Part shown: one piece after another, positions 6,774 through 9,056 of the stretch
Numbering within the stretch: position 1 is the stretch's first letter
Layout: each line of letters opens with the position of its first letter
From: Bacteroidales bacterium
GTDB taxonomy: Bacteria > Bacteroidota > Bacteroidia > Bacteroidales > PWNQ01
NCBI GenBank assembly: GCA_046484255.1
Contig: JAWOBQ010000028.1
Coordinates: 1 to 27,066, forward strand
Direction: 5' to 3'
DNA length: 27,066 nt
Notes under the pieces: model-generated
Seen by the model: the letters and a program-made list of their open reading frames with translations, nothing else
The model's database searches: none
Told to the model about the DNA's origin: nothing
Made by a program: the position numbers and the translations under genes

Positions 6774-7634
6774 TCAGCGGATACGTTGGATAATATCCTG
6801 CAGTATCCGGTTTATGGCATTTTCCGGGTCATATTCAGGAACGGTAAGCTGCCCGATCATTGCATTAAGGAATACTTCATCATAAGGAATGATCCCGGCT
6901 ATTTCCATTTTTGTTTTATGGCAATAGGTCCTGATCCTGCATGTCATTTCCGGATTAATATCTGCTTTATTTACAATAACTTTTACAGCTATCTTAAAGT
7001 GATCCGCTAACTGTTTTGCGCGTTTCAGATCCGCAAGCCCGGCAAGAGTAGGTTCTGTTACTACGACCACCAGGTCGGCGCCGTTAATAGAAGCGATCAC
7101 GGGGCACCCTACACCCGGCGGGCCATCCGTTAAAATATAATCTGCATTTACCCTCTTTGCCAATTCGCGTGCTTTTTCCCTGAGCTTCGCCACAAGCTTT
7201 CCGGACAAGTCCTCTCCTATGCCCAGCCGGGCATGGAGCATAGGCCCAAAACGGGTAATGGATTCATACCACGCACTGCTTTGTGAGCGGATCATATGTA
7301 TAGCATTTTCAGGACAGGCATGCATGCAAAGCTTACAGCCCTCACAATGGATTTCATCCACCCTGAAATTTCCCTGCGTTTCGATAATGGCATTGAAACG
7401 GCATAGCTCAAGACAAATGCCGCACTGGGTGCATTTCCCGGCATCTATCCGGGCAGTAGCTCCCCCCGCAAAAGGATAACTTTGTTTTATCTCCGGTCTT
7501 AATAAAAGATAAAGATTGGCCGCATCAACATCGCAATCCGTAAAAATTGTATTCTGCATCCAAGATGCCAGTGCCGCTACAAGGCTTGTTTTTCCGGTCC
7601 CTCCTTTGCCACTGATCAAAGTTATCTGTTTCAT
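6774..7634 (-). CDS. MinD/ParA-superfamily P-loop ATPase with inserted 2x[4Fe-4S] ferredoxin domain (second paralogue)
   Basis: ISGKGGTGKT, DCDVDAANL, CTQCGICLELC, CEGCKLCMHACP and DGPPGVGCPVIAS. Confidence 0.92.
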   Translation of the reverse strand: MKQITLISGKGGTGKTSLVAALASWMQNTIFTDCDVDAANLYLLLRPEIKQSYPFAGGATARIDAGKCTQCGICLELCRFNAIIETQGNFRVDEIHCEGCKLCMHACPENAIHMIRSQSSAWYESITRFGPMLHARLGIGEDLSGKLVAKLREKARELAKRVNADYILTDGPPGVGCPVIASINGADLVVVVTEPTLAGLADLKRAKQLADHFKIAVKVIVNKADINPEMTCRIRTYCHKTKMEIAGIIPYDEVFLNAMIGQLTVPEYDPENAINRILQDIIQRIR

Positions 7635-7645
7635 ACGTTTAAAAT

Positions 7646-7701
7646 TGTTCCTTGTTCGGTGTTCCTTGTTCGGTGTTTCGTTGTTCGTTGTTCCTTGCTT
7701 G
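7646..7701. repeat. Degenerate heptamer tandem array (TGTTCCT/TGTTCGG, about 7 units)
   Basis: Read directly: TGTTCCT TGTTCGG TGTTCCT TGTTCGG TGTTTCG T TGTTCGT TGTTCCT TGCTTG. Confidence 0.9.
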
Positions 7702-7844
7702 CCCCCGATTGAATATTGCTATCGCAATTCAACCCAGTTGATTAGAAAAAATCAACCCCTGTGAAATATGAAGAGATTTCACGGGATAAACGGGGCAAGC
7801 GGGGTAAACCGTGAAACGCGACGTTAGGAGCATATTTAACGGGA
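7697..7844. repeat. Cluster of nested REP-like hairpin elements
   Basis: Hairpins ttgaat...attcaa, gttgatt...aatcaac and gtgaaat...atttcac, followed by three stacked closing arms: cgggataaa, cggggcaag and cggggtaaa. Confidence 0.8.
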
Positions 7845-7950
7845 GGTTCTGTGTTCGCTTTTTCTCTCAGTCTCTTCGTTCTCTTAAGTCGCTTCGTTCG
7901 CTCAGGTCACCCTATCACCCTCTCATTATCACCTCAACGCATTAGGCCTA

Positions 7951-8020
7951 CTACTATCTACTATCTACTATCTACTACCTACTACCTACTACCTACTACC
8001 TACTACCTACTACCTACTAC
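7951..8020. repeat. Heptamer tandem array (CTACTAT)3(CTACTAC)7
   Basis: Ten contiguous 7-bp units counted directly. Confidence 0.97.
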
Positions 8021-8038
8021 GCCTCATTCCCTGCGCGC

Positions 8039-8063
8039 ACCCCGAACCCCTAAAGGGGAAGCC
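8039..8063. repeat. Solo REP-like palindromic unit (accccgaacccctaaaggggaagcc)
   Basis: Internal palindrome cccctaaagggg; near-identical to the internal arm of the long MITE at about 22070-22095 (reverse strand). Confidence 0.7.
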
Positions 8064-8174
8064 CGTCGCACACTGACATACCCTTCCGGCAGTTCGCCTC
8101 TTCGCATTTAATCATCCTCCTGTGTGCGGAACGCCTCGGCACGGGTGTTTCATATGTTCATTTTATAAACACGT

Positions 8175-9056
8175 TCATCGATCAAGATACCTGATTATAT
8201 TTTTATATAAGGCATGGAACAATTTATCATATTCCTTGCTAACATCCACAAATAAATTTCCTTTAGAATAATGTGCGGCCAATTGCCGGTCGAAAGGGAT
8301 CTCCATTAATACAGGCAAATTTTCCTGTTTCAAATAATCATATAACTTTTGCTGTCCGGATATTGCGCGGTTTATAACCACGCCGGCAGTTTTGTTTATT
8401 TTTTTCAGGGTCTGGGTCATTAGCTTAAGGTCGGAAAGGCCAAACGGTGTGGGTTCGGCCACGACAATTACAAAGTCTGCATCGTGGATAGTTTCTATAA
8501 CGGGACAAGAAGTACCGGGAGGGGAATCATAGATAACAATTTCTTTTTCGGGTGTTTGTTTTTTTAATTCGCGGATCACCGGTACAGCAAAAGGACTTCC
8601 GATCTCCAGCCGCCCTTCCCTTATGCTATGTTTTCCGGTTTGTAACAGATTGATCTGACCTAATTTTTTGTCATATTCCTGTATTGCATCATACCGGCAT
8701 GCCCATAAACACGCTCCACAACTTTTACATAAGTCGGGCATAACCTGAATATGCGAAATGTCCTTAACGAACATAATCGCATTAAAGGCACAAATTTTGG
8801 CACAATCGCCACAATATGTACATCGGGTTTTATTAATCCGTGGGATAAGGGCATTGACATCCATCAGATGTTCAGGTTTTCCCGGGAAAAACAACTGAGC
8901 ATTGGGTTCTTCCACATCGCAATCCGAAAGGGTAACAGCCTGGGCATTTAATTTTTTAATGGCAGCAAAAAGGTTCACGGCTACGGTCGTTTTCCCAGTT
9001 CCGCCTTTTCCACTGGCTACAGCGATCTTTATGTTTGGGTGCCTATTCTGTCCCAT
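8175..9056 (-). CDS. MinD/ParA-superfamily P-loop ATPase with inserted 2x[4Fe-4S] ferredoxin domain (first paralogue)
   Basis: ASGKGGTGKTT, DCDVEEPN, CTYCGDCAKICA, CKSCGACLWAC, DSPPGTSCPV and EPTPFGLSDL. Confidence 0.92.
   Translation of the reverse strand: MGQNRHPNIKIAVASGKGGTGKTTVAVNLFAAIKKLNAQAVTLSDCDVEEPNAQLFFPGKPEHLMDVNALIPRINKTRCTYCGDCAKICAFNAIMFVKDISHIQVMPDLCKSCGACLWACRYDAIQEYDKKLGQINLLQTGKHSIREGRLEIGSPFAVPVIRELKKQTPEKEIVIYDSPPGTSCPVIETIHDADFVIVVAEPTPFGLSDLKLMTQTLKKINKTAGVVINRAISGQQKLYDYLKQENLPVLMEIPFDRQLAAHYSKGNLFVDVSKEYDKLFHALYKNIIRYLDR

Follow-up and report, generated by a model that had tools for sequence, protein, structure and literature searches.

In Nostoc punctiforme and other Nostocaceae, the small dispersed repeats (SDRs) SDR1-8 are said to insert into one another. 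SDRs are very small repeats with precise, targeted insertion (Elhai et al. 2008, as cited in PMC4390886 and PMC5861425), and the passages of these two papers that deal with SDR5 have it inserting between nucleotides 3 and 4 of HIP1. REP, REPIN and BIME elements, which go with RAYT (TnpA-REP), carry a GT[AG]G or CGTC tag at the 5′ foot of a hairpin (PMC3116915, PMC3733652, PMC6006769). Subclass 1.2 of TnpA-Y1 is characterized, in the parts of Quentin et al. 2018 (PMC6006769) that describe it, by a Y---Q--HH signature, low copy number and the lack of IS200-type ends, and is placed mostly in Cyanobacteria and Bacteroidetes.

Nostoc SDRs and REP/RAYT elements are the closest known systems to the nest of hairpin units analyzed here, which lies in a stretch of 27,066 nt from a Bacteroidales bacterium (the window, meaning the whole stretch at its full length). 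Like SDR1-8, and SDR4-6 especially, as the citing papers present them, the units are well below MITE size, have a precise target and come without an obvious transposase; they are also a few tens of nucleotides long, dispersed and precisely inserted in a short target, which is how the SDR type is quoted in PMC4390886 and PMC5861425. They differ in that SDRs are cyanobacterial, whereas our units belong to a Bacteroidales-like freshwater-sediment metagenome-assembled genome (MAG) and, as judged via the citing papers, appear unrelated in sequence; moreover, the units here are 30-50 nt long, and they target a related hairpin at its clamp/stem boundary. With REP elements, the units share short imperfect palindromes that are extragenic, many-copy and clustered in mosaics, a 4-nt 5′ tag, a conserved bulge or mismatch, and the presence of Y1/HUH genes in the same genomes. 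However, the tags here are TTTA, CTTG, CCTG or TTTG instead of GT[AG]G or CGTC, and the units nest at a fixed internal site, whereas REPs form inverted doublets.

Results

Architecture of the Nest

The original prediction, made from the letters of the window, had described three stacked hairpins that could be excised exactly, one from within the other, and a plausible fourth unit of opposite orientation around them. Direct reading of the sequence confirmed the nest at 7697-7844. Excision of the 35-nt U3 (7756-7790) leaves an intact U2, excision of U2 with U3 inside it (7733-7799) leaves an intact U1, and excision of U1 with all of its contents (7703/7704-7808) leaves U4, a hairpin on the opposite strand (Table 1). 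Each of these excisions gives back a GC-clamped hairpin, the host being restored letter for letter, and the outermost hairpin, U4, proved to be a real member of a 32-copy family.

Read on the minus strand, the sense strand for the gene downstream of the nest, the openings follow one another as ...GTTTCACGG, TTTACCCCG, CTTGCCCCG and TTTATCCCG. The core and closing of U3 come next, then those of U2 and U1 in turn, and finally GCAAGCAAGG. Both inner junctions read CCCCG^TTGA on this strand, and a target duplication is absent at both, again as predicted, with a 1-nt ambiguity in that CCCC^G is an equally possible cut. Where U1 meets U4, the boundary falls within a run of C and could be shifted by up to 2 nt; this run is one base shorter than in paralogues.

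Folded as single-stranded DNA, the intact units give z values from -4.8 to -6.0, with the 4-nt leader left unpaired. The whole nest folds with z = -7.2, and the wider region has z = -4.9 relative to shuffles. The computed fold of the nest is a closed three-hairpin junction.

Table 1. Positions of the hairpin units, repeat arrays and flanking genes in the window
Feature	Position	Strand	Description
MinD/CooC-like Fe-S ATPase gene	6774..7634	-	
Repeat mosaic, 540 nt	7635..8174	-	between two Fe-S MinD-like ATPase genes
Heptamer array (GAACAAG/GAACACC/GAACAAC)n, gene strand	7649..7697	-	between nest and start codon at 7634
U4 start	7698..7702	+	leader CTTG and first clamp C, parted from the rest by reverse-oriented U1
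U1 3′ part	7703..7732	-	core TTGAAT-TGCGATAGCAAT-ATTCAA and closing T-CGGGG
U2 3′ part	7733..7755	-	core TTGATT-TTTTCT-AATCAA and closing CTGGG
U3, innermost unit	7756..7790	-	TTTA TCCCG TGAAAT-CTCTTCAT-ATTTCA CAGGGG; hairpin z = -5.1
U2 5′ part	7791..7799	-	leader CTTG and clamp CCCCG, parted from core by U3
U1 5′ part	7800..7808	-	leader TTTA and clamp CCCCG
U4 remainder	7809..7843	+	CCG TGAAAC-GCGACGTTAGGAGCAT-ATTTAA CGGG
Second heptamer array (CTACTAT/CTACTAC)n	7952..8022	+	inside mosaic
MinD/CooC-like Fe-S ATPase gene	8175..9056	-	

Unit Families and Their Filling Stages

On its canonical strand, a unit consists of a 4-nt leader (TTTA, CTTG, CCTG or TTTG), a clamp YCCYG, an AT-rich stem that begins T[TG][GA]A[AT]T, a loop specific to the sub-family and a closing in which one bulged or mismatched base usually precedes GGG(G), giving a length of ∼30-50 nt. 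The genome of the window (G000) holds 32 copies of the U4 sub-family, 11 of type B, 9 of U1 (3 uninterrupted and 6 carrying U2), 8 of H3, 17 of the U2 type in three loop variants and 4 of U3. When the search pattern put forward with the original prediction was run on this genome, it returned 92 matches, and in 16 of these the 6-nt inverted core was perfect, compared with 9 and 6 matches and no perfect core in two controls. The stacked-opening pattern YCCYGYTTRYCCYGTKRAWT matched 11 times in the genome vs. 0 times in the backwards control. By these counts against controls, the nest is beyond chance. No Rfam family matched.

We compared filling stages of the same hosts in the same flanks across G000. 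The U1 host is empty at two loci (C326 and C200), holds an intact U2 without U3 at a third (C339) and holds U2 with U3 inside, written U2[U3], in the window. Similarly, the type B host has no guest at 7 loci, has U2′ as its guest at three (C287, C249 and C128) and has U2′[U3] at C149; of the H3 hosts, 5 are empty and 3 are filled. Tabulating singlets against nests thus gave empty, singly filled and doubly filled hosts with a constant junction, which favors site-specific insertion over local duplication. Local duplication was also ruled out by the units themselves, since U1, U2 and U3 differ in stem and loop. A DDE-type MITE was rejected because no junction has a target duplication.

All 17 U2-type copies and all four U3 copies of G000 are nested and never free. 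The hosts of U3 are four U2 variants, with the loops TTTTCT, CTATTGCT, TATATTCC and, in congeners, TTTTTCTT, and every one of the four is also seen with no U3 in it. U3 must thus have entered this site on at least four occasions, unless conversions account for the pattern. Over G000 and four related genomes, we counted at least 14 distinct host/insert pairs. In all of them, the joint comes directly after the YCCYG of the host, the guest has the host's orientation and no target is duplicated; in G000 and the related genomes alike, the leader travels with the guest regardless of host. About ten further nests in G000 obey the same grammar. The exceptions are three or four loci (C312, C258, C259 and C289) that lack one 9-nt opening, from which it follows that secondary slippage between tandem N4-CCCCG words also acts. 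Many filled and empty copies may have spread inside larger mosaics, so that independent events would be fewer than loci.

From these sequence comparisons, we consider it likely that the nest arose by dedicated, successive, site- and orientation-specific insertions of tiny non-autonomous hairpin units. A unit, with or without a guest of its own, would be placed between the clamp and the AT-rich stem in the 5′ arm of a family member (YCCYG^T), would keep the orientation of its host and would duplicate nothing; each inserted unit carries a new copy of the target, and so nests could build up. In the window, U1 would have entered the U4 clamp in reverse, followed by U2 into U1 and then by U3 into U2. 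An enzyme acting in trans would probably recognize the folded single strand and cut at the clamp/stem boundary, the leading candidate being a Y1/HUH enzyme of subclass 1.2. Composites can recur in new hosts.

Such arrangements could in principle also come about with no dedicated enzyme, by gene conversion or by microhomology-mediated template switching among hairpins of similar sequence, together with slippage among the 9-nt openings. All hosts share short flanks of the junction (YCCYG on the left and T[TG][GA]A[AT]T on the right), the dispersal of mosaics at ∼80% identity makes paralogous exchange plausible, and the loci without one opening show that slippage occurs. Yet the homology amounts to just 5 nt plus 3-6 nt, and a first insertion at the exact site would go unexplained for at least six host types and three or four insert types. 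The leader is always carried along, although it has no homology to the host, and the restriction of U2 and U3 to the inside of hosts suits targeting better than random switches. On balance, we regard template switching as unlikely and dedicated insertion as the better account.

U4 represents a second kind of insertion site. An intact CTTGCCCCG is present in 6 of the 32 U4 copies, and in most of the remaining copies U1, type B or H3 occupies that place. Guests in the U4 clamp are always reverse-oriented (CTTGCC^..^CCG, ambiguous within the C run). Their junctions follow ..AC(G)(G)^, reverse to the host, and differ in arm position from the nest junctions, which follow YCCYG^ in one orientation and without duplication. 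One formal rule fits both sites, namely a C^G step where clamp and AT-rich stem meet, on either arm, with the guest orientation relative to this step differing between nest-type and U4-type sites. A simple IS608-like rule of insertion 3′ of one tetranucleotide does not cover the nest and U4 sites together.

Genomic Setting of the Repeat Mosaic

The window is contig C115 of G000, an assembly of 2.59 Mb in 363 contigs with 89.5% completeness and 42.5% GC. Sequencing runs containing the stretch are freshwater sediment metagenomes only, and the neighboring proteins look anaerobe-like; the best relatives of the adjacent protein, at ∼50% identity, come from many phyla and include Bacteroidales MAGs, Saccharicrinis and Lentimicrobiaceae. 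A cyanobacterial origin, which the heptamer repeats might suggest, was rejected in view of the gene content and the relatives. Two MinD/CooC-like Fe-S ATPase genes flank the nest and point the same way, both being encoded on the minus strand. In six congeneric species, the same two genes overlap or stand 49-50 nt apart, which makes the 540-nt spacer as a whole specific to this lineage. Divided into 20-nt bins, the spacer has 9-49 other matches in the genome for each bin, which means that it is a mosaic made wholly of repeats, and whole mosaics are dispersed in the genome at the level of identity given above.

The mosaics stand in fixed polarity shortly upstream of start codons. Their end is always (GAACAAG)n plus GAACAAATTTAAACAT, with the ATG following immediately, and this end directly precedes the long ORFs of at least 20 other genes (loci with it include C17, C56, C326, C339, C287 and C105). 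On the unit-sense strand, 30 of the 32 U4-family copies have an ORF that starts no more than 450 nt away, vs. 9 of 32 in the other direction. Both the strand bias and the conservation of the GAACAAATTTAAACAT end before so many different genes, as well as the closed three-hairpin junction of the folded nest, would suit a multi-hairpin block that is mainly a selected 5′ leader, with an mRNA-stabilizing or regulatory structure and, after it, an A-rich landing pad that is unstructured. The various module combinations would then be the outcome of selection acting on RNA structure rather than of single hairpins moving. We find this quite improbable as an explanation of the nest: the exact restoration of hosts upon excision and the guests' own leaders would be left unexplained, and Rfam gave no match. 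Selection may nevertheless hold for the mosaic while the hairpins are still insertions, and to that extent it is compatible with dedicated insertion.

Several other features of the mosaic were observed. Its layout resembles a dispersed 5′-leader cassette or a start-codon-proximal insertion preference. Heptamer arrays always flank the hairpin units, as (CTACTAC)n and (GAACAAG)n and, in relatives (e.g., G001:C21), as (GCGATGA)n and (CGAAACC)n. At 8120-8174 of the window, the distal end of the mosaic (..AACATATGAAACACCCGTGCCGAGGCG..) resembles the sequence after another mosaic, in the C260:4225 region (AAACATATGAAACACCCATGCCGAGGCGT), and the insert may have been copied along with part of another locus.

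Other repeat families were seen as well. A MITE-like family of ∼330 copies (GAGTCCGGTCTAAAAAGGTCACATTTGATTTTCACCGGCTT TTTACCCCGAACCCTAAAGGGTGAAGCCGCTGAAAATCAGCC...; for example, at C80, C108 and C218) shares the TTTACCCCG word with the hairpin units and also holds CCCTAAAGGG mini hairpins, like those flanking type c Y1 genes in genome G121. A third repeat family, GTGTTTGATTCATAATGTTCGAGATCAAGG (CTTGCCCCGTTTTTATCGGGTG)n TTTACCCCGTTTTTTTTATCGGGG CGTGCGAACCGAACGAAGTGAGCTCTTGAACACC, found for instance at C284:2842, C205:1550 and C114:3264, displays the same leader-plus-clamp grammar in the form of 22-nt head-to-tail arrays.

Related Genomes

G001 has two triple nests, and G006 one, in which the same U2[U3] sits in another outer host; they lie upstream of other genes. 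The U3 copies of G001 are both letter for letter identical to that of the window, and that of G006 has one base different. Other pairs at the YCCYG junction are U1[U3′] and U4[U2-like] in G001, U4[U2-like] in G006, and U3[Z] and U2[U2] in G018, a genome from a different family of the order. The rule of self-targeting formulated in the original prediction thus extends to related genomes.

These nests also bear on whether that in the window could be an assembly artefact, a chimeric path through similar repeats of a metagenome bin. The bin does consist of 363 contigs, and repeats reach very high summed depth in the source metagenome; however, the U2[U3] triple nests of G001 and G006 come from separate, independent assemblies of two other species, and the roughly ten further nests of G000 show the same grammar. 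We consider an artefact scarcely credible.

The U2[U3] segment is 93-95% identical across these species, compared with ∼64-65% for the orthologous proteins at the window locus, and the distal flanks, at ∼31-40% identity, do not align. Conservation so far above that of the proteins indicates recent spread or strong constraint.

Among 401 genomes of the order, the leader-plus-clamp motif YTTRCCCCGTKRAWT has a background of 0-1 matches per genome, the backwards control being much alike, and is enriched patchily in at least six families. The unit-rich genomes have 6-42 matches: 42 in G078, 31 in G134, 19 in G236, 17 in G000, 14 in G253, 9 each in G001 and G379, 8 in G018 and 6 in G035. Some of them contain head-to-tail arrays of units, such as a 45-nt period repeated five times in G078.

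A search of relatives for less-nested alleles found none: no single orthologous locus with varying nest depth was seen, and six congeners are without the entire mosaic at the locus. A joint from 7732 to 7800, corresponding to exact loss of U2[U3], is present in sediment runs, where it is indistinguishable from the paralogues C326 and C200; the strain-level sequence consists of three freshwater-sediment runs, with contigs too short to place the joint at the locus, and the joint was given no weight as evidence. Scans of metagenome contigs with the U3 and U2 cores gave 0 matches.

Candidate Enzymes

G000 has one clear Y1_Tnp gene (C330:3402-3719), the single good match in the genome. Its protein carries HIH as the HUH motif and YVKNQEEHH, which is the Y---Q--HH signature of subclass 1.2, and on these features the gene itself, as distinct from the hairpins, falls in that subclass. 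Within C330:3312-3760, the N-terminal 17 codons of the gene are out of frame in an A7 run (..AGCACAAAAAAACAG..); the broken frame could mark a pseudogene, a homopolymer sequencing error or slippage. The flanks of this gene hold other small hairpins, not nest-type units, and a search of G000 and its genus for Y1 genes flanked by units found none, which within this genus differs from the REP/RAYT layout.

Arrangements in G379 and G113 are hints that a Y1 enzyme might be involved. G379 has a single Y1 gene (type d, subclass 1.2), which is bracketed by TTTACCCCG-TGAAAT doublets: it lies within C177:3500-5200, between copies 2 and 3 of a module that is repeated three times with 564- and 856-bp spacing, and each module copy holds an inverted doublet of TTTACCCCG-TGAAAT hairpins. 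In G113, one unit of the TTTACCCCG-TGAAAT type follows 73 nt after a Y1 gene of G000's own type (type c). In eleven other genomes, by contrast, type d Y1 genes have GCCCTTTCAGGGC-type mini hairpins in their flanks instead.

In the set of 401 genomes, the distribution of neither Y1 type, c or d, follows that of the unit-rich genomes. Most genomes with a type c or d Y1 gene have 0-1 unit motifs; at the threshold used, four unit-rich genomes (G001, G035, G078 and G236) lacked a type c match, and for type d, G001 and G035 gave distant matches only (E about 1e-27 to 1e-31). In G134 and G236, the stretches enclosed by unit pairs were searched for an autonomous copy and held only housekeeping genes, and one apparent unit from that search was dismissed as a chance match inside a GIY-YIG ORF.

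Within the reading of dedicated insertion, a Y1/HUH enzyme is a tentative candidate for the mover, one that we would not yet favor over other possibilities. The analogy to HUH systems is reasonable in view of the tag plus hairpin, the lack of duplication, the orientation specificity and the head-to-tail arrays, for which rolling-circle copying could, by the same analogy, be the source. The original prediction had proposed minimal hairpins that target their own kind and are mobilized in trans by HUH systems; self-targeting, the fixed site and the absence of duplication stood, and the searches tied no Y1/HUH enzyme to the units.

Other layouts around these genes were observed in passing. Type d genes (in G251, G015, G022, G275, G061, G313, G239, G258 and G014, among others) have clusters of 13-nt mini hairpins (GCCCTTTCAGGGC, GCACCAAAGGTGC and GCCCCGTTGGGGC) on either side, a REPtron-like layout for subclass 1.2. 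At nine places of G121:C1, a type c Y1 gene lies within a 750-bp element that has 22-25-bp terminal inverted repeats (GGATCAATTCATAAAGTTGTGG) and is present in 9 copies; this is unexpected, as the subclass is described as low-copy and without IS ends.

Discussion

Mobility of the hairpin units is supported by strong comparative inference from sequence, and the attribution to a HUH enzyme is tentative. At their nest junctions, the units share with IS200/IS605 ends and PATEs, as PMC6006769 describes these, oriented insertion beside a short sequence, the lack of duplication and the recognition of hairpins. They differ in that a single hairpin without distinct left and right ends is the whole element, in that the target lies inside a stem and in that there is a second, reverse-oriented class of insertion, into U4. 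A two-ended IS200/IS605 derivative is not what we found, the element being a single hairpin; an autonomous partner was not found in the genome, its genus, G134 or G236.

The attC sites of integrons, which bound gene cassettes, are arranged as 5′-RYYYAAC...GTTRRRY-3′. The likeness lies in the G^TT of a folded hairpin with extrahelical bases, and by letters, GTTGAAT/ATTCAAC and GTTAAAT/ATTTAAC fit GTTRRRY/RYYYAAC. We rejected an integron attC: the geometry here is inverted (5′-GTTRRRY...RYYYAAC-3′), no genes are enclosed, and U2 and U3 are off the consensus.

A broader proposal would make the self-nesting hairpins the Bacteroidota counterpart of the cyanobacterial SDRs, with both moved by Y1/HUH enzymes of subclass 1.2. 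We rate this as rather improbable. If it were true, it would give the orphan subclass-1.2 enzymes a function and SDR-type elements a mechanism. In a weaker form, the proposal would amount to a hairpin-targeting, single-strand insertion machinery that also builds mobile 5′ leaders for genes. The clean rule, the natural filling stages and the short list of candidate enzymes make the question testable with oligonucleotides. Units of 30-40 nt that recognize a fixed position in their own relatives would be near the lower size limit of mobile DNA, and because the mosaic is inserted in an operon and comes before at least 20 start codons, these repeats may also rewire gene expression.
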